64,000 bases of DNA, taken from an uncultured Acidobacteriota bacterium. Its GTDB lineage: Bacteria; Acidobacteriota; Vicinamibacteria; Vicinamibacterales; 2-12-FULL-66-21. A program made the translations under genes and the position numbers. The notes under the pieces were generated by a model, which did not search any database, was not told the DNA's origin, and saw only the letters and a list, made by a program, of their open reading frames with translations. Numbering within the stretch: the first letter of the stretch is position 1; each line of letters begins with the position of its first letter. Where the stretch lies: assembly GCA_963749835.1 (NCBI GenBank), contig CAVVOD010000004.1:361061-425060 (forward strand), given 5' to 3'. Positions 5,740 to 60,840 of this stretch are shown in pieces.

Positions 5740-5774
5740 ATGGGCCGTCCGTCTATTATGGACTCATTCGAGGT

Positions 5775-5989
5775 GATCGACTCGGGATCCGGGACTCGGG
5801 ACTGGGGATTCGTGGCCGAGCTGGACTGCCAGAGATCGAGCCCGAATCCCGAGTCCGGTCCTATCGAGTCCCGAATCCCGACTGACCGAGTCCCGAATCC
5901 CGACTGACCGAATCCCGAATCCCGACCGACCGAATCCCAAATCCCCACTGACCGATCCCGAGTCCCGAGTCCCGGATCCCGAGTCGATC
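5775..5989. repeat. composite hairpin element: 29-bp perfect terminal inverted repeats (5775-5803 / 5961-5989) enclosing 4 tandem 22-bp units (5866-5953) built from CCCGARY heptamers
   Basis: gatcgactcgggatccgggactcgggact is the exact reverse complement of agtcccgagtcccggatcccgagtcgatc. The units are gagtcccgaatcccgactgacc x2, gaatcccgaatcccgaccgacc and gaatcccaaatccccactgacc. Confidence 0.9.
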
Positions 5990-7235
5990 ATTTCTGCCGG
6001 ACGTCGAACGCCGTCACATTGTCCTGATCGCGGATGAAGAGCTTGCCGTTCGAGACGACGGGATGGCTCCATGTCGGCAGGCTGCCGGTTGGAATCTGGA
6101 AGCGGCCGTGCTCCCGGTATCCGGCCGGGCTGGCCTCGGCGAGGCCGACGACTCCCTGCTCACTGTAGAGGTACAGCCGGTCGTCCGCGAAGACCACGGA
6201 TCCCTTGCCCACGCTGCGATCTCGCCACGCGACCTCGCCGCTGTCGAACTTCATGGCGGTCAGGATCGCGTCGGAGAACCCATAGAGATGATCGCCGATG
6301 AGCACCGAGCTCGCGTGATGGTTCCGCATCTCGCGCGTGAAGTAGACCTGCTTCGCGTCGATGCGGCCGCTCCCCGGCGTCAGCTCGAGGAGCGCGGCCC
6401 CTGTGCTGTAGCCCGACGAGAGGAACACGTGGTTCCCACGGACAATCGGCGTCGCGATGTTGGCCGTGCGGTTGGCGACCTGGGTGTAACTCCACTGCAG
6501 CTTCCCGGTTTCGATGTCGATGCCGAGCGCCCGTTCACCGGTGAAATAGATGGCTTCTCGGATGCCTCCGGCTTCGTGGAGCACGGCCGACGAGTACCCG
6601 GGCTCATCCGCGAGGCTCTTCCAGATAAGGGAACCGTCCGTCTTCTTGAGCGCCACGATGGAGGCTCCCTGGCCTCCGGGGCTGACGAGGATCCGATCGC
6701 TCAACACCAGCGGCGATTCGCTGAGCCCCCACTGAATGTTCCGGCCACCGAACTTCTCCAGGACGTTGACCTTCCAGAACACCTTGCCCGTGGCGGACTC
6801 CACGGCCGCGAGATCACCGCTGGCGCCGAACACATACAGGCGGTCGCCGTCCACCGTCGGCGTGGCCCTTGGACCGTCGCCCCGATCATTTCCGAACTGG
6901 CGGCCGTGCGGGACCTCCCACAGCTTCTTACCGGTCGCGGAATCGAACGCCATCACATATTCGGTCCCACCTCGTGCGCCGAGGGTATACAGGCGCCCGT
7001 TGCCGGTCGCGAAGGATGAGTAGCCCGCGCCGGCGCCCGCGGCGCGCCACGCGACGGGAGGTCCGGTCTTTGGCCAGTCCTTGAGAAGGCCCTTCTCGAC
7101 CGACACGCCGTCCCGCTTTGCGCCCCGCCACTGGGGCCAGTCGTCCAGCGAACGGTTCGAAACCGCCGCCGGGAGGGAGAGCATGGCAATTACGGCCAGG
7201 GCAGGACCCGCCGAACGGCGAAAGCGTGAATTCAT
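5988..7235 (-). CDS. secreted PQQ-like / BamB-type beta-propeller repeat protein
   Basis: ORF 5988..7322. I prefer the internal ATG at 7235 (MNSRFRRSAGPALAVIAMLSLPAAVS signal peptide, GGAG about 8 nt upstream). Repeated ..W....G......P.v.dg.vy.. blades are typical of PQQ-like propellers. Confidence 0.85.
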   Translation of the reverse strand: MNSRFRRSAGPALAVIAMLSLPAAVSNRSLDDWPQWRGAKRDGVSVEKGLLKDWPKTGPPVAWRAAGAGAGYSSFATGNGRLYTLGARGGTEYVMAFDSATGKKLWEVPHGRQFGNDRGDGPRATPTVDGDRLYVFGASGDLAAVESATGKVFWKVNVLEKFGGRNIQWGLSESPLVLSDRILVSPGGQGASIVALKKTDGSLIWKSLADEPGYSSAVLHEAGGIREAIYFTGERALGIDIETGKLQWSYTQVANRTANIATPIVRGNHVFLSSGYSTGAALLELTPGSGRIDAKQVYFTREMRNHHASSVLIGDHLYGFSDAILTAMKFDSGEVAWRDRSVGKGSVVFADDRLYLYSEQGVVGLAEASPAGYREHGRFQIPTGSLPTWSHPVVSNGKLFIRDQDNVTAFDVRQK

Positions 7236-8476: not shown

Positions 8477-8502
8477 GCGCGAATTATACGGGGCGGGCAG
8501 TT

Positions 8503-8612
8503 CTCAGCTATTCAGCTCTCAGCTCTCAGCTCTCAGCTCTCAGCTATCAGATCTCAGCTCTCGGCTAACAGGCTTTTCCGGCGAGCCCCGGGCCCCGAAT
8601 CCCGAGTCCCGA
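8503..8612. repeat. tandem heptamer array (CTCAGCT)n, about 10 units (8503-8573), followed by a short CCCGARY run (8590-8612)
   Basis: tcagcta ttcagct ctcagct x4 atcagat ctcagct ctcggct, then ccccgaatcccgagtcccgaac. Read directly. Confidence 0.85.
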
Positions 8613-11803: not shown

Positions 11804-11885
11804 CGTGGCGTCAAGAGAACGTACAGCTCTCAGCCGTCAGCTGCGAGTTGGCCGGAAGTGCTTCAGAGGTTTTGCGAAGAAGATC

Positions 11886-12233
11886 AAACACGGAGGCACG
11901 AAGACACGGAGTCCGGACGGAGGCCCCACGAAACGGGTGGTCGGGGCGCGCTCCGCGCGGTGCGGCGAGGACATCTCGCAAACACAAACTCCATCTCACT
12001 TACGGGGAGCTTGTGTTTGCGAGATCTCCTCGCTGCACTCGCCGGCCGAATGGCCGGCGCCCGACCACCCCGGACTCCCCGCAGTCCTATGGCGACAGCG
12101 ACAACAGCCACGGTTGGACACGGCCATCCTCCGAACGGCCCGTGCCTTCGGGTAACCCCCAATCTCTCCGTGCGTCCCCGTGTCTCAGTGGCTCCGTGGT
12201 GGAATTTTCCGTGCCCTCCGTCTCCTCCGTGCC
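11886..12233. mobile_element. MITE-like multi-hairpin element, copy D1 (CACGGAG-type inverted termini, central ~26-bp-stem hairpin 11966-12030)
   Basis: Left end is aacacggaggcacgaagacacggag. The right end ctctccgtgcgtccccgtgtctcagtggctccgtggtgg is the reverse complement of a sequence nearly identical to the left end of D2 (ccaccacggagtcactgagagcacggagacgcacggagag). Internal inverted pair: gggtggtcggggcgc / gcgcccgaccaccc. No ORF with protein character. Confidence 0.65.
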
Positions 12234-15200
12234 CTATCCCCCCGGCGCCACTGGGACAGGCGCCGGGTCGTACGCGAGGTTCGGCGCGAGCCAGCGCTCG
12301 ATGGTCTCGATGTCGGCATCCTTCCGCATGGCGTAGGACTCCACCTGATCCCGTGCAATCCGGCCGACGTTGAAGTACTTCGCCTCCGGATGTGAGAAGT
12401 ACAGCCCGCTCACCGAGGCCGCCGGCAGCATCGCAAAGCTCTCCGTCAGCGTGAGCCCCTGCCGGCCCGCGTCCAGCGCGTCGAACAGCTTGCCCTTCTC
12501 GGTGTGGTCCGGACACGCGGGATAGCCGTATGCCGGACGGATGCCACGATACTTCTCGGCGACGAGATCGTCGTTCGACAACTGTTCCTGGTCGCCGTAT
12601 CCCCAGTCCTTCCGCGCCTGCGCGTGGAGGTACTCCGCGAACGCCTCGGCGAGTCGGTCGGCCAGCGCCTTCACCATGATCGCGTTGTAGTCGTCGTGAT
12701 CCCGCTCGAAGCTCCGCGCCAGTTCGTCAGCGCCGAGTCCGGCCGTCACCGCGAACATCCCGATGTAGTCCGGCACGCCGGTGTCCAGCGGCGCGATGAA
12801 ATCCGCAAGCGATCGGTTCGGACGCTTGTCGGCAATCACTTCCTGCTGGCGCAGCATCGGCAGCCGCGTCAGCTCGACGCGACGCGTGTCGTCCGCGAAC
12901 ACGACGATGTCGTCGCCGACGCTGTTGGCGGGCCAGAAGCCATAGACACCACGGGCCGACAGCAGCTTCTCCTTGATGATCCGCTTGAGGAGTTCCTGCG
13001 CGTTCGCATACAGCTCGCGTGCGGCCGATCCGTAGGTCGGATGTTCCAGGATCGCGGGGAAGCGCCCCTTGAGCTCCCAGGCCGAGAAGAAGAACGTCCA
13101 GTCGATATACCTGGCAATATCCTCGAGCGCCACGTCATCCAGGTATCGGCGCCCGACGAACCACGGTGACGCAATGACGTGACCGTCCCAGTCGATCGTG
13201 AGGCGGTTCGCGCGCGCCTGCTCATACGTCAGCAGCGGTTTCTGCCGCCGCGTGGCGTAGCTCTCGCGAATCTCCGCCTGCGCCACACGGTTCACCCGGT
13301 CGAACTCCTCCCGCCTCTCGCCGATGACGCTTGACACCACGTCCACCGCCCGCGACGCGTCGAGCACGTGGATCACCGGGCCGGAGTATTCGTGCGCAAT
13401 CTTGACGGCCGTGTGCTGCCGGCTCGTCGTCGCTCCCCCAATCAGGAGCGGCGTCGTGAAGCCGCGGCGCTCCATCTCCCGCGCGACGAACGCCATCTCG
13501 TCGAGCGACGGCGTGATGAGCCCGCTCAGCCCGATGATGTCGGCCTTGTGTTCCACCGCCGCATCGAGGATCTTCGCCGCCGGGACCATCACCCCGAGGT
13601 CGATCACCTCGTAGTTGTTGCAGCCCAGCACGACCCCGACGATGTTCTTGCCGATATCGTGAACGTCTCCCTTCACCGTCGCCATCAGGACACGGCCCTG
13701 CGCCGACGCGGCGCCCGTGATGCGCTTACGCTCTTCCATGTACGGCAGCAGGTAGGCGACCGCCTTCTTCATCGCCCGCGCGCTCTTGACGACCTGCGGC
13801 AGGAACATCTTGCCCGCACCAAACAGATCGCCGACGACCTTCATCCCGTCCATCAGCGGGCCCTCGATGATGTGCAGCGGCTCTTCATACTTCTGCCGCG
13901 CCTCCTCGACGTCCACCTCGATGAAGTCCACGACGCCGTGCACGAGGGCGTGCGACAGCCTCGCCTCGACGGTGGCCTCGCGCCAGCCGAGATCGGCTTC
14001 CCGCTTCGTCCCGCTCCCCTTGACGCTGTCCGCGAACTGCACGAGCCGCTCCGTCGCGTCAGGACGACGGTTGAAGATGATGTCTTCGACGTGTTCCAGC
14101 AGGTCCTTCGGGATGTCTTCGTAGACGATCAGCTGTCCGGCGTTGACGATGCCCATGTCCATGCCGGCCTTGATGGCGTGATACAGGAACGCGGAATGGA
14201 TGGCCTCGCGGACGACGTCGTTGCCGCGGAACGAGAAGGACAGGTTGCTGACGCCGCCGCTGATCTTGGCCCCCGGACAGGTCGCCTTGATGATCTTCAG
14301 CGCCTCGATGTAGTTGACCGCATAGTTGTTGTGCTCCTCGAGCCCTGTCGCGATGGCGAGGATGTTCGGATCGAAAATGATGTCGGTCGGATCGAACCCC
14401 GCCTGCTGGATGAGGAGCGTGTAGGCGCGCTGGCAGATCTGCACCTTGCGCTCGACGGTGTCCGCCTGGCCTGTCTCGTCGAAGGCCATGACGACGACGC
14501 CGGCGCCGTACCGGCGGACCGTCCGCGCCTTGTGGAGGAAGTCCTCTTCCCCTTCCTTCAGGCTGATGGAGTTGACGACCCCCTTGCCCTGGACGCACTT
14601 GAGTCCGGCCTCGAGCACGGTCCACCGGGAGCTGTCGATCATCACCGGGACCCGCGCGATCTCCGGCTCCGTCGCGATGAAGTTCAGGAACGTCGTCATC
14701 GCCTGCTCGGAATCGAGCATGCCTTCGTCCATGTTGACGTCAATCATGTTGGCGCCGCCGCGCACCTGCTCGACCGCGACGCTGACGGCCTCGGTGTAGT
14801 TCCCGCTCTTGATCAGCCGCGCGAACTTCGCCGACCCCGTGACGTTGGTGCGCTCGCCAATCATCTGGAAGTTGCTCTCCGGACGGATCGTCAGCACTTC
14901 GAGCCCGGAGAACTGGGAATAGTGGACGGGATCGGGACTCGGGGCTCGAGACTCGGGATTCGGGGCTCGGGACTCGGGGCTCGGCTCGGATTCGGGACTC
15001 GGGATTCGCCCGCCCCCGCTCGCATCCACATCTGTGCGAGCTACGGCGAGGCCGCGCCGTAGCCGCGCCGCGGCGGAGGCGGGGGACTCGGGGCTCGCCG
15101 GATCGGGACTCGGCGACCCGGGCGCCGTAGCTTCCGCCTTCAGGCGGAAGGATGCTGCAGACACCCATGACGGCGACGGCAGCGGCCGCGGCGTCACGCG

Positions 15201-16190
15201 CTCGACGGCCCTGGCGATGGCCGCGATGTGTTCCGGCGTCGTGCCGCAGCAGCCCCCGAGAATGTTGGCGAAGCCGCTGGCGGCGAAATCCTCGAGCAGG
15301 ACGGCGGTTTCCTCGGGCTGCTCGTCGTACTCGCCGAACGCGTTCGGGAGCCCCGCGTTGGGATAGCTGCTGACGTAGCACTCGGATATCCGCGCGAGCT
15401 CCGCCATGTACGGCCGCATCTCGCGCGCACCGAGCGCGCAGTTGATGCCGACGCTGAACGGCTGCGCGTGCCGGATCGAGGTGTAGAACGCGTCCACTGT
15501 CTGGCCGGACAGGGTTCGGCCGCTCCGGTCCGTGATGGTGACCGAGATCATGACGGGCAGGCGCGTGCCCTTTTCCTCGAACACGTTCTCAATCGCGACG
15601 ATCGCGGCCTTGGCGCCCAGGGTGTCGAAGATGGTTTCGAGCAGGAGCAGGTCCGAGCCGCCGTCGATGAGGCCGCGGACCTGCACCTCGTAGGCCGCGC
15701 GCAGCTCGTCGAAGGTGATGGCGCGAAAGGCGGGGTTGTTGACGTCGGGTGAGATGGAGAGCGTGCGATTGGTCGGTCCGAGCGCGCCCGCGACAAAGCG
15801 CGGCCGGTCGGGCGTCCTGGCCGTCCAGGCGTCGGCCGCCTCGCGCGCAAGCCGCGCCCCTTCGACGTTGATCTCGTACGCGAACGGCTCCAGCTCGTAG
15901 TCGGCCTGTGCCACCGCGGTGCCGCCGAACGTATTGGTCTCGATGATGTCGGCGCCGGCCGCGAGGTACTCGAGGTGAATCGCGCTGATCACATCCGGGC
16001 GCGTCAGGACGAGGATGTCGCTGTCCCCCTTCAGATCCCGGGGATGCGTGGCGAACCGTTCGCCGCGGAAGTCCGCCTCCGTCAGTTTCGCGCGCTGGAT
16101 CATCGTGCCCATGGCGCCGTCGAGAATGAGGACGCGGCGTTCGAGGAGAGAGCGAAGCGTGTCGACGGCAGGACTCTTCATACTGGTCAT
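12234..16190 (-). CDS. metH: cobalamin-dependent methionine synthase
   Basis: 1318 aa. All MetH modules are recognisable: Hcy-binding (..[20 protein letters not shown]), pterin-binding (..GERTNVTGS..), B12-binding (..[13 protein letters not shown]..) and the AdoMet activation domain (..[12 protein letters not shown]..). About 90 aa longer than the 1227-aa E. coli enzyme because of the linker insertion annotated separately. Confidence 0.97.
14926..15172 (-). repeat. intergenic-type repeat cassette (heptamer run + GCGAGCTACGGCG + CTTCCGCC-TGAA-GGCGGAAG-CTACGG hairpin) embedded in-frame in metH
   Basis: + strand 14928-15008 reads gggatcgggactcggggctcgagactcgggattcggggctcgggactcggggctcggctcggattcgggactcgggattcg. 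Position 15044 has gcgagctacggcg, and 15125-15150 carries the hairpin module. It is translated as ..[86 protein letters not shown].. Confidence 0.85.
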
Positions 16191-17275: not shown

Positions 17276-17300
17276 TGGCAAGGGCGGTGTCGCTTCGAGC

Positions 17301-17373
17301 GGTCAGCTCTCAGGTCTCAGCTGTGAGCCATTGGTATCGGAGCTGAAAGCTGAGTGCTGAGAGCTGAGAGACC
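17301..17373. repeat. inverted pair of GAGAGCT-family heptamer runs forming an imperfect hairpin
   Basis: ggtcagctctcaggtctcagctgtgagcc .. ggagctgaaagctgagtgctgagagctgagagacc. It lies between the M13 peptidase stop and the SahR-like start. Confidence 0.75.
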
Positions 17374-19448: not shown

Positions 19449-22076
19449 CTACAACCCGGTCGGCAATGCGGCGGCGCGCCGCGCCCTGAGCCACTCGGTC
19501 AGCTTCGCGGGTTGCGTGGCGGCAAGCGAGGAGCACTCGTTGATCCGCTCGACCGCCTGCTGGAGTGTCCGCGTGGCATCCGGCACCTTGTGAAGGGTGA
19601 AGAACTGCTTCACGTTCACGGCTGTCCGCGCGTCGCAGAACGTGCCGAGCGCGGCAATCACCTGAGTATTGCCCCCGAACTGGCCGGTTTTCTTCTGCAC
19701 CTGCGCCCATCGTTCACGGAGGAGCGGCCAGGCGAGTTTCCGCGCGTCAGGGTTGCCCAGCAGATTCGCCAGGAAGACCTTGGCGTCCTGGCTGCGCACA
19801 TCCGGCCCGACGATGTAATCGATCGTCCTGCGCACCAGGGCGGGATCGGTGAAGCCGGCGAGCCCGTACAAATAGCGATAGTGCTCTTCGGGGTCCGTCG
19901 CGGCTTTGCTACGCTCGACATACTTGGCGTACAGCGCGGCGTCACCACGCCGGGCCGCCACTCTGACAGCGGCGTTCAGCAGGGTCGGCTCGACGGTGCC
20001 TGGTTTCGCAAGCTCCTCGAGGACCAGGCTGCGCGCCTTCGCGACGACGGCAGGATCGCCGGCGGCCTCGCCCAGTACCGAGACGAGCGACGCGCGAAGC
20101 GCGCGGGTCTCGTCGCTATCGGAGGCACCGGACGACCATCCGACCCGTTCGAGTGCCGGCCCCAGCAGCGAGCTGACCCACGCACTGTACGCCGGCCGCG
20201 AGCCGGGCGTGGTCAGGTTGTCGCCGATGGTTCCCAGCGAGGCCACCAGTGTGGCGACGACCGCCGCGTCCCGCTCCCCTTTGAATCCAGCGGCGAGGTC
20301 CATGAAGGAGCTGACATCATGCCGTCCCTGGAGCACAAGTGCCCACTCGTCGTCGAGGAGCGAGATCCGCTCGCCGGGCGTCAGTGACGTGATGCCTGCC
20401 GCAAGCTTCGGAAGCATCGCCGGCGGATTCACGACACGGTAATAGCCCCGCGCCCCTGCGTTGGCCATCACATATGCGGGGCACGACTCCAGCGGCACAT
20501 CCAGGGGCTCCTCGCCGACGACCTCGCATGCCGTCTTCCCGTCTGGCGTCTTTATGCAGACCGGAATGTCCCATGTGCGCGGCGGGGCGACGCGGCGGGG
20601 CCCCGAGGCGCCGGTCGGCGCCGTCTCCTGACTGACCGTCGCTGTGCCACGGCCGTCAGCGCACTTGACCGTCGCATCCACCATCGGCACGCCGGGCCGA
20701 TCCACGAAGCCGGCCATCACGCGATCGACGGGCTTCCCGGTGCTCGTCGCCAGCGTGCCCCAGAAGTCCTCTGCGGCGGCATTGCCGTACTTGAACCGTT
20801 CGATGTAGGCGTTGACGCCGGTCCTGAACGCCTCTTCGCCGACCCATGCCTCGATCATCCGGAGCACGGCTGCCCCTTTTCGTACGCGATCGCGTCGAAG
20901 AGCTCGCCGATCTCGTCGGGAGTCGATGCGCTGGTACGGATCGCGCGGGTCGTCTCGAGAGAGTCGAGCGCCATCGCTTTCTGGTTCGACTGAACCTCCT
21001 CGAGCTCCATGTTCCACTCGGGCTTCCATGCCTTGACCGGCTTGCTCGCCATCCACGTGGCGAACCCTTCGTTCAGCCAGATGTCGTCCCACCACCGCAT
21101 CGTCACGAGATCGCCGAACCACTGGTGGGCCATTTCGTGGGCGAGCACGCTGGCGATGTTCTTGCGGACCCTGACCGACGCGCCTTTCGGATCGGCGAGG
21201 AGGAGCGTCTCGCGGTAGAAGATCGCGGCGGTGTTCTCCATCGCTCCCGCGGCAAAGTCCGGGACGGCAACGATGTCGAGCTTCTTGAACGGATACTTCA
21301 CGGTGTAGTAGCGGTTGTAGTACCCGCAGGATCTCGGCGGCCGCCTCGAGCGCCAGGCCGGTCTGCCCCTTCTTGTCCGGTGTGGAGCAGATGCGAATCG
21401 GGATCCCGTCGGCGCTGCGTGACGAGCATTCGAAGTCCCCGACCGCCAGCGCCAGCAGGTACGTCGACATCTTCGGCGTGGTCTCGAATGTGACCGTGTG
21501 CTTCCCCGGCTTCGGGCTCGGCGTGTCGGACACGATCGCGCCGTTCGAGATCGCGTGGTCTCCCGTGTCGATCGTGGCGCTCAGCGCGAACGTCGCCTTG
21601 AACGCGGGCTCGTCGAACGACGGAAACATGCGTCGCGCGTCGGTCGCCTCGAGCTGCGTCACTGCGTAGCGGCGATTGTTGGCCTTGCTGAGATACAGCC
21701 CGCGCAACTGGTTGTTCAGGATGCCGGTGTATTTCACGGCGATCTCGGCGCGCCCCGCGGCAATGACCTGCGGCACCGTGAAGGTGGCCTGTTCGCGCTT
21801 CGGGTCCAGCGTGACGCGGGCGGTCTGCGTGCTGCCGCCGGCAGCGATGGTGACCGTGTCGAATGTGATCTCCGCAGCGTTCAGGGTGATCGTCCGCGAA
21901 GGCTTCTCGAGCGTCACGGTAATCCGCTCGGTGGCCGTAAAACTCGCCGCCGGGAGGTTCGGCTCGACGGCGATCTCGTAGTGCTCCGGGACGACGTTGC
22001 CAGGGAGCCGCTGGGCACGGGCGGGGGAGGCGAAGAGGATCAGCGCGGCACTGAGGACCAGAGGAAATTTACTCAT
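19449..22076 (-). pseudogene. pepN: M1 family aminopeptidase N, disrupted by two compensating 1-nt frameshifts (or sequencing errors) that scramble the catalytic core
   Basis: Begins MSKFPLVLSAALILFASPARAQ at ~22076 inside the 1401-aa track ORF. The catalytic segment ([22 protein letters not shown]) is only readable in another frame (track ORF 20855..21301). Frame switches are at ~21324-21326 (extra G: ctgcggGtactac) and ~20873-20876 (one G missing: gaaaagggg^cagcc, expected [10 protein letters not shown]). Confidence 0.85.
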
Positions 22077-22121
22077 GATGGCACCCGATGAAAGCTCCAA
22101 CTGACGGCCTATACTGGCCGG

Positions 22122-22742
22122 GTGAAAATGAAAGTGTACCCCAGCGCACGTCCTGTGGCCGCGCTCGTGCTGGCGCACGGCGCGGGCGCGGGGCAATCCA
22201 GCCCATTCATGGTTCGCGTCGCCACCGGACTGGCTGAGCGGGGACTCTCCACCGCGACCTTTGATTTCGGCTACATGAGCACGGGACGCAAGGTGCCTGA
22301 CCGCGCGCCCGTGCTCGAAGCCGCGTGGCGCGAGGCGATCGAGTCGGCCCGATCGGAGTTCAGGGGACTGGCGCTCTACATCGGCGGCAAATCCATGGGC
22401 GGACGCATCGCTTCCCACGTGGCCTCGCAGGGAGGAACCGGCCCGCTCGCCGGCCTGGTCTTCCTGGGTTATCCGCTGCATCCGCCGGGGCGTCCCGACC
22501 AGCGCCGCGACGCCCACCTGCCGGCCATCGCTGAACCGATGCTCTTCGTGCAGGGAAGCCGGGACGCCTTCGGCTCGGGGGATGAGATTCGTCAGCTGCT
22601 GCCGTCGCTGCAGCACGCGACGCTGGAGGAGATCCAGGGAGGCGACCACTCCTTCAAAGTCCCGGGCGGCGCCAGCCAGCAGGCGCCCGTCCTCACGGGC
22701 ATCATGGACGCGGTAGCCGCGTGGACACAGAGGACGGCCTGA
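22122..22742 (+). CDS. alpha/beta hydrolase (KANL3/Tex30-like predicted hydrolase family)
   Basis: 206 aa. ..LVLAHGAGAG.., nucleophile elbow ..GGKSMGGR.., ..FVQGSRDAFG.., ..GGDHSF. Confidence 0.8.
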   Translation: MKMKVYPSARPVAALVLAHGAGAGQSSPFMVRVATGLAERGLSTATFDFGYMSTGRKVPDRAPVLEAAWREAIESARSEFRGLALYIGGKSMGGRIASHVASQGGTGPLAGLVFLGYPLHPPGRPDQRRDAHLPAIAEPMLFVQGSRDAFGSGDEIRQLLPSLQHATLEEIQGGDHSFKVPGGASQQAPVLTGIMDAVAAWTQRTA

Positions 22743-22761
22743 CTTGCGCCTGCGCTCGATG

Positions 22762-22890
22762 CGGGAGCTACGGCGGGGCCAGGCCCCATTTCGGGATTCG
22801 GGACTCGGGACTCGGGGTTCGGAAATGCGGAAGCTGGAAGCCGGAAGCTGGAAGCCGGAAGCTGGAAGCTGGCAGCTGACAGCTGATGTC
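22762..22890. repeat. spacer holding three abutting heptamer families plus GGGAGCTACGGCGG and a GGGGCC-A-GGCCCC palindrome
   Basis: gggattc gggactc gggactc ggggttc, then cggaagc tggaagc x6, then tggcagc tgacagc tgatgtc. Read directly; all have a 7-nt period. Confidence 0.9.
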
Positions 22891-22898
22891 TGCCCCTG

Positions 22899-23555
22899 AT
22901 GTCTGAGTCTGACCTTCGCCTCATCGCTGCGACGACCCATGGCCGCGTCCTGGTGCGCGACGCGCGGGCGGCCGCCGCGCGGGGAGTCCTCGTGGGGTTC
23001 CATGGCTACATGGAACAGGCGGTCATCCAGATGGAGCGGCTGCAGGCGATTCCCGGAGCCGCGCGGTGGACGCTCGTGTCCATCCAGGCGCTCCACCGGT
23101 TCTACCGGGGGCGCAGCGAAGAGGTCGTGGCAAGCTGGATGACGAGCCAGGATCGCGAGGCCGCCATCGCCGACAACATCGAGTACGTCGATGCGGCGCT
23201 CGACACGGTCCCCCACGATGCGTCCACGAAGATCGTCTTTGCGGGTTTCTCGCAAGGCGTGGCCATGGCCTTCCGGGCCGCGGTCAGAGGACGTCGTCCC
23301 GCCGCGGGCGTCATTGCGGTTGGCGGCGACGTGCCGCCGGAACTGCTGCTGGATCAGGACGCGGCGTTCCCGTTCGTGCTGCTCGCACGGGGCGCGCGCG
23401 ACGAGTGGCTCACCGCACAGAAGTTCAGAGCGGACCTGAACGCTCTCGCGGAGCGCACGCCTGGACCGAGAGTTCGCGCCGTCGAATTCGAGGGCGGACA
23501 TGAATGGAACGACGCCGTGGCCGAGGCGGCGGGGGATTTTCTCGAGTCCGTCTAG
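22899..23555 (+). CDS. phospholipase/carboxylesterase-type alpha/beta hydrolase
   Basis: 218 aa. ..VLVGFHGY.., nucleophile elbow ..FAGFSQGVAMA.., C-terminal ..GGHEW. Confidence 0.8.
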   Translation: MSESDLRLIAATTHGRVLVRDARAAAARGVLVGFHGYMEQAVIQMERLQAIPGAARWTLVSIQALHRFYRGRSEEVVASWMTSQDREAAIADNIEYVDAALDTVPHDASTKIVFAGFSQGVAMAFRAAVRGRRPAAGVIAVGGDVPPELLLDQDAAFPFVLLARGARDEWLTAQKFRADLNALAERTPGPRVRAVEFEGGHEWNDAVAEAAGDFLESV

Positions 23556-23754
23556 TGTCCTGACCGCGTGGATCGTGCATAAGTCCCGGAGCGCGGCGCC
23601 CGGCTGGCTAGGCGCGACGACCGAGAATACTGGCCGTATTTGAGGGAGGAGCAACGCCGCCAGGCCGGGGCCCCCGCCGCGCGTGTTTTGCGCGGTGGGG
23701 TGGAGAAGGGATGCCCCGCCCGGGAATTATGTCGCGAACCACGCGGTCAGGACA

Positions 23755-31836: not shown

Positions 31837-31871
31837 ACCCTTCAGACCCCAGCTGTCCGATTCCGGACACT

Positions 31872-31902
31872 GGGGTCAGACCCCGGTCGTCCGATTACAC
31901 AC
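31872..31902. repeat. third copy of the 31-nt GGGGTCAGACCCC-containing repeat
   Basis: ggggtcagaccccggtcgtccgattacacac. It lies in the 77-nt spacer between the convergent DUF349 and amidohydrolase genes. Confidence 0.8.
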
Positions 31903-31913
31903 TCTGACGGCGC

Positions 31914-33605: not shown

Positions 33606-33648
33606 GAGAAGAGACTCCTGTTTCGATGATGTCTGGGAGATGCCCGGC

Positions 33649-33692
33649 CGCCGTAGCTCGCACCGATCAGCGAACGGAGGCGAGCGAATCCC
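33649..33692. repeat. short repeat module: CGCCGTAGCTCGC (reverse of GCGAGCTACGGCG) plus GAATCCC x2
   Basis: ccgccgtagctcgcaccgatcagcgaacggaggcgagcgaatcccgaatcccg, read directly. Confidence 0.7.
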
Positions 33693-33702
33693 GAATCCCG
33701 TC

Positions 33703-34599
33703 CTAACGGAACAATCGGTCGAAATTGTCGCCGAAGATGAGCGCCCTGTCGGCGTCGGCGAGACCCGCTGCGCGCACCGCAGCATCCTGCGCCGCATACA
33801 CAGGCTCCAGCCATCCCCGTGGGAAGAACGACGAGTCCGTCCCGAAGACGACGCGCTCGGCTCCGACGACGGCGACGGCATGCTGGAACACGGCTTCGAG
33901 CGTCAGGCCCGGATGGTATTTCAACCACCGGTTCGAGCTGGAGGTATCCAGGTGGATGTTCGGGCACTGGTCCGCCGCCATGAGCACTTCGCGGAAGAGC
34001 CCCGCGCCGAAGTGCGGCACGATGACGGGGACATTCGGGAACCGTGCGGCGGTCGCGGCCAGCGCGAGCGGATCGCCCAGGCGCATGTCGAACGGCGAGA
34101 GCAGGCCCAGCTTCTTCCTGATACCCACGCTCAGCACGCCGCAGTGCGCGAACACCACCGCGCCGCCGGCCTGCGCCGCGGCAAAGACATCCCGCACGCG
34201 CTCGTCGTCCAGCCGGTACCCGTGCATCGCGGGGAAGAGGCAGACTCCGCTGAGGCCCTGCTCGCCGAGGACGCGCGACAGCCGGGTCCGCACATCTCCC
34301 TGCAGAGGGTTGAACATGAAGAAGCCGATGAACCTCGTGGGGTGCCTGCGGACGGCGGCGAAGACCGACTCTTCGTCGCCGGCGATGCTTCCAATCAGAG
34401 CGACCTTCGAAACGTTGTGCCTGTCCAGTTCGGCGACCCAGCGGTCAGCCAGCTCCTCGATTGTGCCCGGATCGTTCCATCCCACGCGGTGCGATACTGC
34501 GGTTGCGCGGCCGGTGTCCGGCAAGTCGCGAATGCCCTGAGTCAGCAGTTCGAGGAACCGGGACGAGAACAAGTGGCAATGAACGTCGCACAGGCGCAT
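33703..34599 (-). CDS. amidohydrolase family protein (Amidohydro_2 / TIM-barrel metal-dependent hydrolase)
   Basis: I prefer the start MRLCDVHCHLF (34599), which carries the HxH metal motif. ..VVFAHCG.. and ..VFGTDSSFFPRGW.. Confidence 0.8.
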   Translation of the reverse strand: MRLCDVHCHLFSSRFLELLTQGIRDLPDTGRATAVSHRVGWNDPGTIEELADRWVAELDRHNVSKVALIGSIAGDEESVFAAVRRHPTRFIGFFMFNPLQGDVRTRLSRVLGEQGLSGVCLFPAMHGYRLDDERVRDVFAAAQAGGAVVFAHCGVLSVGIRKKLGLLSPFDMRLGDPLALAATAARFPNVPVIVPHFGAGLFREVLMAADQCPNIHLDTSSSNRWLKYHPGLTLEAVFQHAVAVVGAERVVFGTDSSFFPRGWLEPVYAAQDAAVRAAGLADADRALIFGDNFDRLFR

Positions 34600-44020: not shown

Positions 44021-44030
44021 GCGCTGAATC

Positions 44031-44080
44031 CTTCCGCCTAAAGGCGGAAGCTACGGAGTCCCGATCCCCGATCCCCGATC
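44031..44080. terminator. hairpin module CTTCCGCC-TAAA-GGCGGAAG-CTACGG followed by CCCGATC heptamers, filling the 59-nt spacer between convergent ldcA and the M49 peptidase gene; candidate bidirectional terminator
   Basis: cttccgcctaaaggcggaagctacggagtcccgatccccgatccccgatc, read directly. It has an 8-bp GC-rich stem and a 4-nt loop. The terminator function is inferred only from its position. Confidence 0.5.
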
Positions 44081-46077
44081 TATCCTCGCCCCGAATATTC
44101 GAGCATCTGTCTCTTCAAGTCGCGCGGATAGGAGATCGTCACATCGGTGATGATCCCGTCCGGTCCCGTGACCGGTTCGAGCCTGGGCTGGACGAAGCCT
44201 GTGTAGGACGGCATGTTCAGGTGATCCACTCGCGCGACGACTTCGTCGCGCAGCGACGCCTCGAAATGCACACCGTACGTCTCGAACATCGTCTTTGCGG
44301 TCTCGTAGTCGCCTTCCGCCTTGATCCGTTGAACTTCGCCGAGCAGCCGTCCGACGCTCTCCTGGAAGTCTGTCGCGTTGACCATGACGTAGTACGTCTT
44401 GCCCTCGCGCTGCCGCACCTCGATCGCGTTCGAGTTGGCCAGGAGCCACCGCACGATCATCTGGCGGTTCCGCATGTGGTCTTCCTCGATCTGCGTCCCT
44501 TCGCGCACGCGCCGGAGCTGAACGAGGGCGTTGCGGGCATAGCCCTCATACTCGGCCTGGATGACTTCGGCGTGGTCGGCGGCCTTCACCAGGCCGAGCT
44601 CCACCATCCGCGGGCTCGGCAGGAAGTACAGCGCGACCAGATCCGCGCGCGATTCTTCCAGCGCGGAGTATTGCTCCTTCAGCACCGACTGCGGATTGCC
44701 CTTCAAGTGCTCGCCGATCTTCCCGGAGCCGTGGCCAATCACTTCGTGGAGATCGGTCGTCAATTCCCCCGCAAGGCTGCTCCATTTCTCGGCTCTCGCG
44801 GCCTCCTCGGGCGACCACGCGAACTCACGCCGGAACTCGGCCGACGTCGACTTGTCGTACGCCTCGTTGACGTTGGCCAGAGAGACGGACTTGCTGCCGT
44901 ACGTCTCGCGGATATCCTGATCGTTCGGCAGGTTGATGCCCACCGGCGTAATCGGCGAGGACTCACCCGATTCGACGACGACGTCGATGGCGTTGGCGGT
45001 GATGCCTCGCACACCCTGCTTCCGATACTGCGGCGCCCAGGGCATCCGATCTTCGAACCACTGCGCATCGGCAGCGAGCTTGCGGATGCCGGCGGTCTTC
45101 TCGCGGTTGACGTAGAAGACCAGCGCTTCCCATGCCCCCTTCATCCCCCGCGGGTCCATGTAGACCTCGACGAACCCGTTGATCGTGTCGACGGGAGACT
45201 CCTTGTCGTGGACCCAGGCGATGTCGTACGCCGCGCGGTCGGCCGTCTCACCGGTCGTGTAGAACCTGATGAGCGCGCGCAGCGCGGCGGCCATCGATTC
45301 GGTGGCGTACGGAATCGCCGCCTCCAGATGGCCGATGATGGCGCGGATCTCTTTGTCGTATCGTTCACCGACGCGGTACACCTCCTCCAGGACCCTGCCG
45401 CCGCGCTTCACGAGGCGTGAATTGAGGGGATATCGCTCTTCGAATCCTTCGAGGTCGTGCATCGATACGCCGACGTACAGGTTGTTCGCGCTGCCGGTCA
45501 GGATGTCCAGGCCCGGCCCAGGCGTCTTGTGCGTAACGGTCGGATCCACCGTGAGGTCGAAGAAGATCGGCCGAAGCCTGGTGAGCAGGGCATCGAGCGT
45601 CTCGCCCGGCTGGACGGGGAAGCTGGCTCCAGCGGCCGCCGCCGCCTGCGCGGCCGCCGCAAACGCCTCCGGCGTGCATTTGGGCACGAACTTACGCGCG
45701 GTCAGGTTGTTGAAAGGGCCCACGTTCAGCCAGAACAGCTTCGTGTAGGTTTCAATCTCACCGAGCGTCTGCGGGTCCACCCCGGCCGGGTGCGTGATGA
45801 TTTCCTCGAGCACGTCACGCATCTCGAGGTTGTGCGCGTACCGCTGGTCGTAGAAGATGTCGCGGCCCGCCAGCGCCGCCTGGTACAGGTGCCAGATGAG
45901 GATCTTCTGATCGACGGGGAGCGCCGCGAACCCGTCGGCGGACAGCTGTACAACGGCAGCTTCCTCCACGCGCTCCAGCAGATACGTGCGTTCCGCAGGA
46001 GCGTCCGTATTCTGCGCCGGGACCACCGGCGTCTCGGGCGCTGGCGTATTGCTGTTCCTGCTGTTTGCTTCGCTCAT
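44080..46077 (-). CDS. M49 family peptidase (dipeptidyl-peptidase III-like)
   Basis: 665 aa. It has the HExxGH zinc motif (..DLHEVIGHGSGK..) and the second motif EExRAD (..ALEESRADLVALYF..). Confidence 0.85.
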   Translation of the reverse strand: MSEANSRNSNTPAPETPVVPAQNTDAPAERTYLLERVEEAAVVQLSADGFAALPVDQKILIWHLYQAALAGRDIFYDQRYAHNLEMRDVLEEIITHPAGVDPQTLGEIETYTKLFWLNVGPFNNLTARKFVPKCTPEAFAAAAQAAAAAGASFPVQPGETLDALLTRLRPIFFDLTVDPTVTHKTPGPGLDILTGSANNLYVGVSMHDLEGFEERYPLNSRLVKRGGRVLEEVYRVGERYDKEIRAIIGHLEAAIPYATESMAAALRALIRFYTTGETADRAAYDIAWVHDKESPVDTINGFVEVYMDPRGMKGAWEALVFYVNREKTAGIRKLAADAQWFEDRMPWAPQYRKQGVRGITANAIDVVVESGESSPITPVGINLPNDQDIRETYGSKSVSLANVNEAYDKSTSAEFRREFAWSPEEAARAEKWSSLAGELTTDLHEVIGHGSGKIGEHLKGNPQSVLKEQYSALEESRADLVALYFLPSPRMVELGLVKAADHAEVIQAEYEGYARNALVQLRRVREGTQIEEDHMRNRQMIVRWLLANSNAIEVRQREGKTYYVMVNATDFQESVGRLLGEVQRIKAEGDYETAKTMFETYGVHFEASLRDEVVARVDHLNMPSYTGFVQPRLEPVTGPDGIITDVTISYPRDLKRQMLEYSGRG

Positions 46078-46098
46078 GCGTCCTGCTTTCCCGGTTTC

Positions 46099-46172
46099 TT
46101 CCTTCCGCCTGACCAGCCTGCGCCAAACCCCGAACCCCGAGTCCCGAATCCCGATCCCCCGAGTCCCGAATC
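46099..46172. repeat. half hairpin module (CCTTCCGCCTGA..) plus a CCCGARY heptamer run with six C-tracts
   Basis: ccttccgcctgaccagcctgcgccaaaccccgaaccccgagtcccgaatcccgatcccccgagtcccgaatc. It abuts the beta-CASP gene stop. Confidence 0.8.
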
Positions 46173-47626
46173 TAGTCCAACTCTACGGTCTCGCGGTGCT
46201 GCGGCATCATCGTCTTCCAGCCGAGCTTCGCGGTGATGGATGCGCCAAGTGCTTCCATCGATGCCGGCTCTCCATGCACCAGGAAGGTCGTGCGCGGTGG
46301 ACGGCTGAAGCCGCCGAGCCAGCGCAGGATCTCGGTGGAGTCTGCGTGGGCCGACATCGATTCAATCAGCTCGACCCGGCAGTTGACGGGAATCGTCTGG
46401 CCGTGGATACGGACCGTCTTCTGGCCGTCCACGAGTTGCCGGCCGCGCGTACCGACGGCCTGGTATCCGGCAAAGAGCACCGTGTTGCGGGCGTCGGGCA
46501 GGCATGCCTTGAGGTGATGCAACACCCGGCCGCCCGTCGCCATCCCGCTGGCGGAAATGATGATCGCCGGCGTTTTCGACTGCGTCAGCTGTTTGGATTC
46601 CGCCGCGGTCGAGATGGTCTTGAACCGCTCCGTGCAGAACGCACAAATCTGGCGCTCGCGCTGCGCGTGGCGGCGGCGGGTCTCCGGCGGGTCGAGCCGG
46701 GCCGCGGGCCCGTGCGGCGCCTTGTCGTCGTGCGCCTCCGGCTGCATGTCTGGATCGAGCTCGCGAAGCCGCTCGGTGTATCGGGCCAGCGCCTCGACGG
46801 CCATGGGGCTGTCGACAAACACTGGAAGCATCGGGATACGCCGCTCTTCCTCAAGCCGCTTCACCCAGTAGATCAGCTCTTCGACGCGCCCGATGGCGAA
46901 TGCGGGGATGATCACCCGGCCGCCGCGTCCTTCTGCCGCCGTGATCGCCTGCGCCAGCGCCGAGCCGCTGTCGTCTGCGTCGTGCACCCGATTGCCGTAC
47001 GTGGACTCGACGAGCAGGTAGTCGGCCTCCGGGACGAGCGTGGGATCGGGCAGCACCGGACGGTCGAAGCGTCCGAGGTCGCCGCCGAACAGAATCGTGC
47101 GTCCCCCTGTCTTGACGCGCGCATACGAGGAGCCGAGCAGATGCCCGGCGTTGATGAACTCGACCTCGACGTCGGCCGCCACCGGCATGGGGCGCTCGTA
47201 CCCGACGGGTTGCAGCAGCGAGACGGCGCGGAACGCGTCGGCCTCGCCATACAGCGGCAGCGCGGGGGCATGCTTCGAGTATCCGTGACGATTCGCGTTC
47301 GCCGCGTCTTCTTCCTGGATGCGGCCCGAGTCCGGGAGGACGATCCGGCACAGATCCTGGGTGCCGGCCGTGCAGAACACCCGTCCCCTGAAACCCTGCG
47401 CCACGAGCCGCGGCAGATACCCGCAATGATCCAGGTGCGCGTGCGTGAGGACGATCGCGTCGATTTCCCGGGGCGGTACGGGGAACTCCTGCCAGTTCCG
47501 CTCGCGCAGCTCCTTGAGCCCCTGGAAAAGACCCGCGTCGATGAGGACCTTGGCGGTGCCGGTGTCGAGCAGGTATTTGGAGCCCGTGACCGTCCGGGCT
47601 GCGCCGAGGAAGGTGATGGAAGGCAT
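46172..47626 (-). CDS. MBL-fold metallo-hydrolase of the beta-CASP RNA-metabolising family
   Basis: 484 aa. ..ITFLGAARTVTGSKYLL..VLIDAGLFQG.., ..VLTHAHLDHCGYLP.. (HxHxDH), ..ESTYG.., ..SMSAHAD.. Confidence 0.88.
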   Translation of the reverse strand: MPSITFLGAARTVTGSKYLLDTGTAKVLIDAGLFQGLKELRERNWQEFPVPPREIDAIVLTHAHLDHCGYLPRLVAQGFRGRVFCTAGTQDLCRIVLPDSGRIQEEDAANANRHGYSKHAPALPLYGEADAFRAVSLLQPVGYERPMPVAADVEVEFINAGHLLGSSYARVKTGGRTILFGGDLGRFDRPVLPDPTLVPEADYLLVESTYGNRVHDADDSGSALAQAITAAEGRGGRVIIPAFAIGRVEELIYWVKRLEEERRIPMLPVFVDSPMAVEALARYTERLRELDPDMQPEAHDDKAPHGPAARLDPPETRRRHAQRERQICAFCTERFKTISTAAESKQLTQSKTPAIIISASGMATGGRVLHHLKACLPDARNTVLFAGYQAVGTRGRQLVDGQKTVRIHGQTIPVNCRVELIESMSAHADSTEILRWLGGFSRPPRTTFLVHGEPASMEALGASITAKLGWKTMMPQHRETVELD

Positions 47627-48530: not shown

Positions 48531-48542
48531 CCGCTTCGCGGC

Positions 48543-48646
48543 CGGATCGGGATTCGGGATTCGAGTCCCGAGTCGTCTTCCGGCTAAAGCCGGAAGCTAC
48601 GTGGTGCAGGTCCCGATCCCCGAACCCCGAATCCCGAATCCCGAGT
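48543..48646. repeat. composite: G-orientation heptamers, hairpin module CTTCCGGC-TAAA-GCCGGAAG-CTACG (48577-48601), then C-orientation heptamers
   Basis: ggatcgggattcgggattcgagtcccgagtcgtcttccggctaaagccggaagctacgtggtgcaggtcccgatccccgaaccccgaatcccgaatcccgag, read directly. Confidence 0.9.
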
Positions 48647-48660
48647 GTTAACATGGCCCG

Positions 48661-60623: not shown

Positions 60624-60754
60624 GGGGACTCTGGATCGGGGATCGGGGATCAGGGATTGGGGACTGGGGACTGGGGATAAGGGATTGGGACGTTCGAGTC
60701 CTCGAATCCTGAATCCCGAGTCCCCGATCCCTGATCCCCGATCCCCGATCCCGG
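60624..60754. repeat. long hairpin of opposed heptamer runs: 24-bp perfect inverted repeat (60634-60657 / 60727-60750); the G-rich arm has >=8 G-tracts
   Basis: gatcggggatcggggatcagggat is the exact reverse complement of atccctgatccccgatccccgatc. The sequence between the arms is also partly self-complementary (ggggactggggactggggataagggattggga / tcctcgaatcctgaatcccgagtcccc). Confidence 0.9.
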
Positions 60755-60840
60755 CCCGGTTGGCACCCGCATTGATGGGCGCCATCGCGACGGCGACTTC
60801 CTGGCCGGAATAGGCAGGCCGCGGGAGACTTGGCGGAAGG

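Follow-up and report, generated by a model that had tools for sequence, protein, structure and literature searches.

A composite of REP hairpins and heptamer repeats in frame within the Hcy:Fol linker of an acidobacterial methionine synthase

The stretch of DNA analysed here, hereafter the window, comprises 64,000 nucleotides of contig CAVVOD010000004.1 from an uncultured Acidobacteriota bacterium of the order Vicinamibacterales. It carries metH, the gene for cobalamin-dependent methionine synthase, and our subject is an in-frame insert of repeat DNA (the cassette) between the homocysteine-binding (Hcy) and folate-binding (Fol) modules of the encoded enzyme. The gene is an intact open reading frame (ORF) in which the Hcy, Fol, Cap, Cob and Act modules form a single chain. 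Five Pfam domains are recognised with E-values of 2e-19 to 3e-121, namely S-methyl_trans (residues 21-329), Pterin_bind (445-683), B12-binding_2 (742-814), B12-binding (832-923) and Met_synt_B12 (1022-1290). The protein is 72-94% identical to 120 annotated methionine synthases, which come from metagenomes and from metagenome-assembled genomes (MAGs) of Vicinamibacterales or other Acidobacteriota. The gene order in four close relatives (M13 peptidase, ArsR-type helix-turn-helix/methyltransferase gene, metH) is that of the window.

The segment joining the Hcy and Fol barrels, Linker I, is an ordered 'zip' in published structures and makes Hcy:Fol a rigid body (PMC10567725). The window protein was aligned with structures of human MTR (4ccz, 9ssp). 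In the 4ccz alignment residues 9-341 match chain positions 6-337 and residues 427-663 match 344-580, leaving 6 residues in Linker I of the human enzyme and 85 in the window protein (342-426, nt 14913-15167). Taking the clade-conserved Trp-342 and His-423 as limits, the insert amounts to 80 residues, among which Pro, Ser, Ala and Glu are frequent. It sits in the middle of Linker I and the conserved segments ..PLPSPSW and HYSQFSGLE.. remain on its two sides. The spacing from GGCCGxxP to GERxNxxGS is 125 residues, departing from the short, fixed 44 residues typical of MetH. The coding frame crosses the window insert with no stop and restart of the kind that marks split MetH at the Hcy|Fol junction. 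An earlier reading of the sequence (the original prediction) had placed a cassette at 14926-15172 between the two modules of an intact 1318-residue enzyme; the ORF and its domains are confirmed, the peptide it quoted is exact and the limits measured here are very close. The gene and the parts of the insert are as follows.

12234 to 16190, minus strand: metH, cobalamin-dependent methionine synthase, intact 1318-residue ORF with ATG start
14925 to 15164, minus strand: Linker I (Hcy:Fol) insert, residues 343-422
15127 to 15150, minus strand: REP-A hairpin, CTTCCGCC-TGAA-GGCGGAAG-CTAC, translated as FRLKAEAT
15099 to 15155, minus strand: window-specific 57-nt insertion with REP-A, its flanks and one to two heptamers (boundaries approximate, from the MAFFT alignment with orthologues L001-L004)
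15081 to 15111, minus strand: short heptamer run, GAGTCCC/GATCCGG/GAGCCCC (from the sequence and blastn against the window)
15040 to 15064, minus strand: palindrome GGCTACGGCG-CGGCCT-CGCCGTAGC with two inverted GTAG tags, translated as RLRRGLAV, stem predicted
15018 to 15044, minus strand: REP-B, GTAG-CTCGCA-(10-nt loop)-TGCGAG, common to orthologues L001-L004
14927 to 15008, minus strand: main heptamer array, 12.3 copies (Tandem Repeats Finder, period 7, 78% matches), copy number variable among orthologues
14955 to 14979, plus strand: canonical G-quadruplex (G4) motif, four G3-4 tracts with 3-4-nt loops (regular-expression scan), on the metH template strand

Read in the coding orientation, the insert runs from REP-A (REP, repetitive extragenic palindrome) through the short heptamer run and the palindrome to REP-B, which overlaps the palindrome, and then to the main heptamer array. 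On the plus strand REP-A reads CC, then GTAG-CTTCCGCC-TTCA-GGCGGAAG, the form of a GTAG-tagged REP; its stem has 8 bp (CTTCCGCC/GGCGGAAG) and its loop is TGAA. REP-B has a stem of 6-7 bp, (G)CTCGCA/TGCGAG(C), and reads CGCC-GTAG-CTCGCA.. on the minus strand. The GCTACGGCG/CGCCGTAGC palindrome is an inverted pair of tags. The unit of the main array is CGGGACT on the plus strand and CCCGAnn in the mRNA. A G4 motif and a hairpin inside a coding region had been predicted and both are present, with one correction: the G-rich strand is the metH template strand, so the metH mRNA is C-rich. The oligonucleotide GGGATTCGGGGCTCGGGACTCGGGG is an example of the G-rich heptamer repeat and appears G4-capable by its motif. 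Two stable local hairpin stems are predicted in the cassette RNA. The whole cassette folds no better than shuffled sequence (minimum free energy -110.2 vs -108.8, z=-0.29), and the idea of a special global mRNA structure was dropped.

On sequence grounds, the insert is a composite of repeat elements that also fill the intergenic spacers of the window, in agreement with the original prediction. The hairpin pattern has three matches in the window (15126, 44033, 48579) and none in 100 shuffles. Within the window, blastn with the cassette gives E=1.6e-8 to 44028-44056 and 6e-8 to 22791-22822. The segment 15101-15158 is 83% complementary to 44023-44080 over 58 nt, and the likeness extends past the palindrome into the flank and the heptamers. 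A peptide FRLK[AP]EAT had been reported at ~44030 and ~48580; the underlying nucleotides (TTC CGC CTA AAG GCG GAA GCT ACG and TTC CGG CTA AAG CCG GAA GCT ACG) are indeed present. REP-B and the heptamers downstream of it can be aligned to 33643-33708 and, less closely, to 22763-22790, and CGCCGTAGCTCGC has four matches against 0.4 expected. Four-tract G-heptamer arrays number ten, against ~0.1 expected in Markov-1 simulations; nine are intergenic and the only one in a gene is that in metH. The related spacer copies are listed below.

44023 to 44087, plus strand: REP-A, CTACGG and CCCGATC heptamers, between convergent genes (REP-A copy at 44031-44054)
48541 to 48648, plus strand: G-heptamers, a REP-A variant (CTTCCGGC..) and C-heptamers, intergenic (REP-A copy at 48577-48600)
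46097 to 46176, plus strand: half a REP-A, then a C-heptamer array, intergenic
33643 to 33708, plus strand: REP-B, then heptamers, probably intergenic (exact 13-mer within 33649-33708)
22763 to 22824, plus strand: GAGCTACGGCG motif, then a G-heptamer array, intergenic (part homologous to REP-B at 22763-22775)
5774 to 5990: array of 22-nt period flanked by heptamer arms that are inverted copies (36 nt, 97% complementary), intergenic
60624 to 60757: inverted G-arm and C-arm heptamer arrays, intergenic

The copy at 33643-33708 was considered as a second in-frame case and rejected; it lies past the stop of the 33703-34698 gene and before a signal-peptide-like start of the next gene, and is probably intergenic. 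A minus-strand ORF over the 22.8-kb repeats (19449-23654) was likewise not accepted as a gene, having no coding signature in GC at the third codon position and overlapping plus-strand genes that do have one. We note that two genes, 44080-46077 and 46172-47626, have their minus-strand TAG stops (44080-44082 and 46172-46174) inside or at the edge of heptamer arrays, reminiscent of the published finding that stop codons are often provided by the ends of REPs.

The GC content of the insert is flat over the three codon positions (0.73/0.72/0.73), whereas the rest of metH shows 0.65/0.43/0.89. The linkers of seven orthologues are flat too, at about 0.7/0.7/0.7 vs 0.65/0.42/0.89. The original prediction supposed that a 7-nt period should break the frame, but the period poses no such threat. 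Three heptamers make 21 nt, or 7 codons, and hence a seven-residue repeat, and the heptamer repeat is stop-free in all six frames. Through the entire cassette three of six frames are open, two of them among the three in coding orientation, and the filter for an open frame is therefore mild. Among 121 linkers the self-identity of residues at lag 7 is 0.20, against ~0.08 at other lags. An AlphaFold2 model built on a 51-sequence alignment has a predicted template modelling score (pTM) of 0.80 and both barrels are confident. Residues 347-421 of the insert have a predicted local distance difference test score (pLDDT) below 50, with block means of 28-36, which fits the predicted disordered linker and a segment that is looped out of the fold.

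Alignment with orthologues had been proposed as a check. At the nucleotide level (MAFFT), comparison of the window with its four closest orthologues (L001-L004, 91-94% protein identity) shows that the cassette is layered and not one single capture: an older REP and heptamers are shared, and only the window has a further 57-nt hairpin module. The flanks of the cassette align without gaps in all five sequences. REP-B is also common to all five, its stem kept and its loop diverged, and it therefore represents the older layer. The 57-nt block with REP-A is present in the window and absent from L001-L004. L003 lacks one arm of the palindrome, a block of 33 nt. Compared with L001 and L002, the heptamer sequence is longer by 66 nt in the window, 36 nt in L004 and 6 nt in L003. 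The hairpin pattern was not found in the ~67 kb around metH of these four relatives.

Judged from the aligned proteins, a hypervariable Linker I is a property of the clade and is not peculiar to the window genome. The spacing from GGCCGxxP to GERTNVTGS ranges from 49 to 150 residues over 121 proteins (median 73, window 125), and linker length is variable in all 120 closest homologues. Pro and Ser make up 16.8% and 14.1% of the linkers, against 4.6% and 5.2%. The linker peptides are readable as translated repeats: heptamers in the two orientations give DPGSRIPDPD and GSGIRDPGS, LPPEGGSH is the REP hairpin in a variant or another frame, REPRTAN and GERTAES are other heptamers, and the translated GCTACGGCG palindrome is also readable. 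The frame in which the REP hairpin is translated varies from gene to gene, and no residue within the insert is conserved clade-wide. The DNA of more distant members has different elements at this one site: L127 carries three REP hairpins, heptamers and a coding flank in duplicate, L128 has a CTCCGT/ACGGAG palindrome, the heptamers of L126 are of the CGCGAAC type, and those of L125 form a G-arm and a C-arm.

Other MetH sequences were sampled as DNA at 63 diverse loci, independently of gene calls. At 41 of the 63 (among L137-L208) the anchors lie exactly 44 residues apart, a rigid spacing against which the variability in Acidobacteriota stands out. Clade-type flanks are found at 11 loci, all of which keep the frame open without a stop, with 45-79 residues. 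A stop or frame change between the Hcy and Fol anchors is found at 15 of the 63 loci, from other lineages (L132, L134, L135, L167-L169, L173, L176, L179, L185, L186, L188, L190, L197 and L202); at several of these metH reads as two ORFs, cleanly divided at the Hcy|Fol junction (..PRxLPxxExxLA, stop, then M..LRLSGLEP). Split MetH is already known (PMC7857596), and the junction is therefore naturally permissive.

Individual loci of this comparison have features of their own. The longest linker, with 150 residues between the anchors, is that of L127 (5695-6018, P0090). It contains a ~120-nt tandem duplication, which takes in a REP hairpin and 33 nt of the conserved coding flank (97% identical); beyond this lie a third, oppositely oriented hairpin, heptamers and a GCGCTACGGCGCGGCGCC palindrome. 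The split spacer of L188 holds an extra ORF, and the spacer peptide of L135, read by eye, looks REP-derived. A distant MetH, L141, has an in-frame insert of ~42 residues within the first part of the folate barrel, following SGLDALTIR. The peptides of this insert (TGVSPVQRALQ..GETPALL) look like those of REPs and suggest that other lineages have further points of insertion.

A scan of the genome collection for the hairpin returned at least 120 stretches, almost all from Vicinamibacterales or other Acidobacteriota MAGs; among the matches listed, a few come from Gemmatimonadales, Acidimicrobiia and Bifidobacterium-labelled bins. The consensus is GTAC-GTAG-TG-TCCGSC-TTYA-GSCGGA-CC, in which conservation of the tag is by construction, since GTAG was part of the search pattern. 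The copies often form inverted pairs 30-60 nt apart (e.g. L007, L019, L046, L051, L085, L099); those of REP-A in the window are singletons. Short tandem repeats sometimes follow the hairpin; in L024 and L094 these are CCCGAnT heptamers. Of 161 sampled copies, 156 are not within any ORF that shows a coding signature. The other five are in frame inside real genes by a conservative test, a count that is a lower bound because the detector missed metH itself, where the flat-GC linker dilutes the signal of the flanks. Three of the five fall in an interdomain gap defined by Pfam. The five cases, all in Acidobacteriota MAGs, are:

L025, 5541 to 7100, minus strand: ThiS|ThiF
L059, 2759 to 4225, plus strand: phosphoglucomutase-family domain I|II, an inverted REP doublet (GPAEAGHY..VVSGFSRT)
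L082, 1237 to 3969, minus strand: Fer2_4|Fer4_20
L047, 2304 to 5699, plus strand: UvrD-like helicase
L033, 5786 to 7999, minus strand: spermidine-synthase-like N-terminal membrane region

The window holds further small repeats. Another family of heptamers, AGCTGAG/CTCAGCT and its variant AGCTGGA, fills spacers in both orientations at 2873-2930, 8498-8566, 17298-17370 and 22829-22885, and the arrays at 2869-2924 and 8512-8567 show 89% complementarity across 56 nt. None of it was seen in window ORFs, which may be because one orientation contains TGA in all three frames. The 430-nt spacer directly downstream of metH (11804-12233) is dense in CACGGAG/CTCCGTG motifs and has a 33-nt inverted repeat (11960-11992 and 12006-12038, 91% complementary); this type of motif is translated in metH linkers of other lineages (P0100/L128, and L165 with HHGGHRGH..SVSPVSSV). 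A 33-nt unit, GGGGTCAGACCCCGGTCGTCGGATTACGCACT, with a GGGGTC/GACCCC hairpin is present in three copies that are 85-94% identical (2522-2554, 2572-2604 and 31871-31903), and constitutes another small dispersed repeat family. ARAGORN found no tRNA gene in the whole window.

With these comparisons in hand, we consider it highly probable that selfish or non-coding repeat DNA entered the metH frame in the middle of Linker I and is translated as an unstructured loop of ~80 residues. The homology to spacers, the codon statistics and the insertions and deletions among orthologues all point this way, as the original prediction had proposed. The site tolerates extra sequence, in that the barrels are predicted to be intact and other lineages cut the gene at the same junction. 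REP-B and some heptamers are placed by the alignment in the common ancestor with the 91-94% identical relatives; the 57-nt module bearing REP-A appears to have been added in the window lineage alone, with drift in heptamer copy number since. The heptamer arrays would change by replication slippage, with selection keeping multiples of 3 nt that lack stops. REP-A may have arrived by REP transposition of the type driven by REP-associated tyrosine transposases (RAYTs), leaving no target duplication. Alternatively, template switching or gene conversion from a REP-heptamer spacer such as 44023-44087 might have delivered it, the resident linker heptamers providing the homology. Selection would act on the open frame and on flexibility and not on the peptide sequence. 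The same process seems to have been repeated across Vicinamibacterales and related Acidobacteriota with different types of element, and such repeated insertion makes Linker I hypervariable.

Several observations weigh against this account of repeat capture. Linker I locks both barrels together in the solved structures (PMC10567725), and the insert may therefore carry a functional cost. No clear target-site duplication or clean insertion boundary is visible in the alignment with L001-L004, and the mechanism of insertion thus stays with the alternatives given above. Inspection of a single REP-rich locus (L070, with a response regulator and histidine kinase of a two-component system) gave no RAYT transposase; the window ORFs were not scanned for transposases. 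When the linkers of seven relatives were compared by blastn with their own +/-10 kb flanks there was no significant match other than the internal duplication in L127, so the mirroring of own-genome spacers by the linker is established for the window alone. The 57-nt insertion rests on one assembly and the exact protein is absent from the public collection. Translation of the insert, too, we infer from conservation of the frame.

The dependence on one assembly raises the question of an artefact, in which a repeat-induced misjoin or collapse put spacer sequence into metH. The repeats are short, dispersed and GC-rich, of a kind that confuses assemblers, the exact protein occurs in no other public assembly, and the REP-A module is peculiar to the window in the comparison with its four closest relatives. 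Yet the flanks are collinear with four independent assemblies, which have REP-B, the palindrome and heptamers (most of the cassette) at the same position, the insert is in frame and stop-free, and comparable in-frame REP linkers occur in many independent metagenomes; we regard an artefact as the least credible of the explanations. The interrupted loci invite a different history. An ancestral two-ORF metH could have collected REPs and heptamers in its spacer until loss of a stop fused the halves, a course to which the 15 interrupted loci, the clean splits among them and the REP-like spacer peptide of L135 would all lend themselves. Against it, members of the clade with homologous flanks have near-baseline linkers of 45-51 residues (L164, L166, L175, L130, L162; P0092 with 49), so that a short fused ancestor with later insertions is the simpler account. 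Moreover, the 57-nt module is a recent addition to an already fused ORF, and no relative with clade-type flanks has a stop. Re-fusion is accordingly quite improbable in our judgement.

Function at the level of the protein or the RNA must also be weighed. Every member of the clade exceeds the 44-residue baseline and the enrichment in Pro and Ser is consistent, as might be expected of an adaptive Pro/Ser/Glu-rich spacer or interaction region whose likeness to spacer repeats is compositional convergence. The likeness, however, is one of nucleotides and reaches beyond the palindromes, GC is flat over codon positions, length and sequence turn over among 91-94% identical orthologues, and the element types are unrelated from lineage to lineage, with nothing in the insert conserved across the clade. 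A selected linker is on this evidence highly unlikely. Very unlikely, in our estimate, is an embedded regulatory element, for which mRNA hairpins or the template-strand G4 would be retained because they control mRNA stability or cause a pause in transcription or translation between the two barrels. The four-tract motif and the two predicted local hairpins speak for it; related heptamers form G4s in vitro (PMC4692102) and REPs act as RNA elements elsewhere (PMC3733652). The cassette nevertheless shows no excess folding over its shuffles, and no Rfam family was matched at the gathering threshold in the whole window, cassette included. Nor are position, type and orientation of the elements conserved among orthologues, some close relatives lacking REP-A or a palindrome arm. 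A bolder form of repeat capture makes the REP hairpin and the heptamer array a single composite mobile unit of Vicinamibacterales with its own propagation mechanism, the arrays acting as dispersed homology by which such units copy themselves into any tolerant site, and Linker I of MetH as a recurrent landing pad. This is conceivable, if rather unlikely. Were it true, an essential enzyme would carry a strain-specific, fast-evolving, length-polymorphic peptide derived from at least four unrelated families of non-coding DNA.

Capture of repeat DNA in metH would offer a natural example of non-coding repeats becoming protein, with donor-type copies, the recipient gene, the empty site in relatives and later slippage all visible in the nucleotides. 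As regards the enzymology of MetH, the case shows that Linker I, for all its standing as a structural zip, can accommodate anything between a few and over 100 additional disordered residues, at a junction where other lineages split the gene. The metH linkers could serve as strain-level length markers in abundant uncultured soil bacteria. Translated REP peptides and DPGSRIPDP can also mislead annotation and the calling of domain boundaries.

Intragenic GTAG-tagged REPs are documented, with clusters encoding 43-82 residues and a bias to repair genes, in the survey by Di Nocera, De Gregorio and Rocco (2013, PMC3733652). The elements described there are palindromes of ~24-30 nt with an unpaired GTAG end, in many dispersed copies, mostly intergenic and often in inverted dimers; copies occur occasionally in frame within ORFs, singly or in clusters of tens of residues, and UvrD-type helicases are among the hosts, as in L047 here. 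REP-A and REP-B conform to this description, having a stem of 6-13 bp with a short loop and an unpaired GTAG end, and the family is multi-copy, dispersed, mainly intergenic and frequent as inverted dimers. The survey mentions Acidobacteria once, and no Acidobacteriota REP family came up in the parts of it consulted. Unlike the REPs documented there, the elements here are joined with long heptamer microsatellites and have colonised the same metH linker repeatedly across a clade.

The Rickettsia palindromic elements (RPEs; Ogata et al. 2000, as summarised in PMC10969869 and PMC3733652) are likewise selfish palindromes found in frame in unrelated housekeeping genes at positions compatible with the fold, and supply extra peptide segments within functional proteins. 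The metH insert resembles them in being in frame, with ORF and domains intact and the barrels confident in the model. RPEs are ~100-150 bp long, encode a conserved family-specific peptide and, by the account of Di Nocera (PMC3733652), bear a CGTC tag, whereas the units here are 24-30 nt, GTAG-tagged, read in several frames and mixed with tandem heptamers. The hosts of RPEs have reduced intracellular genomes and the host here is a free-living, GC-rich soil bacterium.

GGGNATC-type heptamer simple sequence repeats (SSRs) of Xanthomonas and Nostoc are enriched in spacers, depleted in ORFs and form G4s in vitro (Rehm et al. 2015, PMC4692102). The window repeats share with these, and with the short tandemly repeated repetitive (STRR) heptamers of cyanobacteria, heptamers with G3-4 tracts, variable copy number, inverted arrangements and a G4-capable motif (PMC4692102). 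At least four consecutive tracts occur in tandem, with enrichment in spacers and depletion in ORFs, and the G-rich strand, avoided on the coding strand in those SSRs (PMC4692102), is the template strand in metH. The units differ, being GGGAYTC, GGGGCTC and GGGGATC and not GGGAATC or GGGGAYT, as do the phylum and the apparent translation of a 12-copy array inside an essential gene; G4 formation is here a prediction from the motif. With split MetH (Price et al., cited in PMC7857596) the window gene has in common that the Hcy|Fol junction is a natural breakpoint, cut in several metagenome lineages; unlike split MetH, it is continuous, as are its relatives with clade-type flanks. Intragenic REPs and RPE-like selfish DNA in frame are thus already known, and here they are joined with a translated heptamer microsatellite. 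What is added is that such DNA has landed repeatedly, throughout a clade, in one linker of an essential enzyme that had been taken to be rigid.

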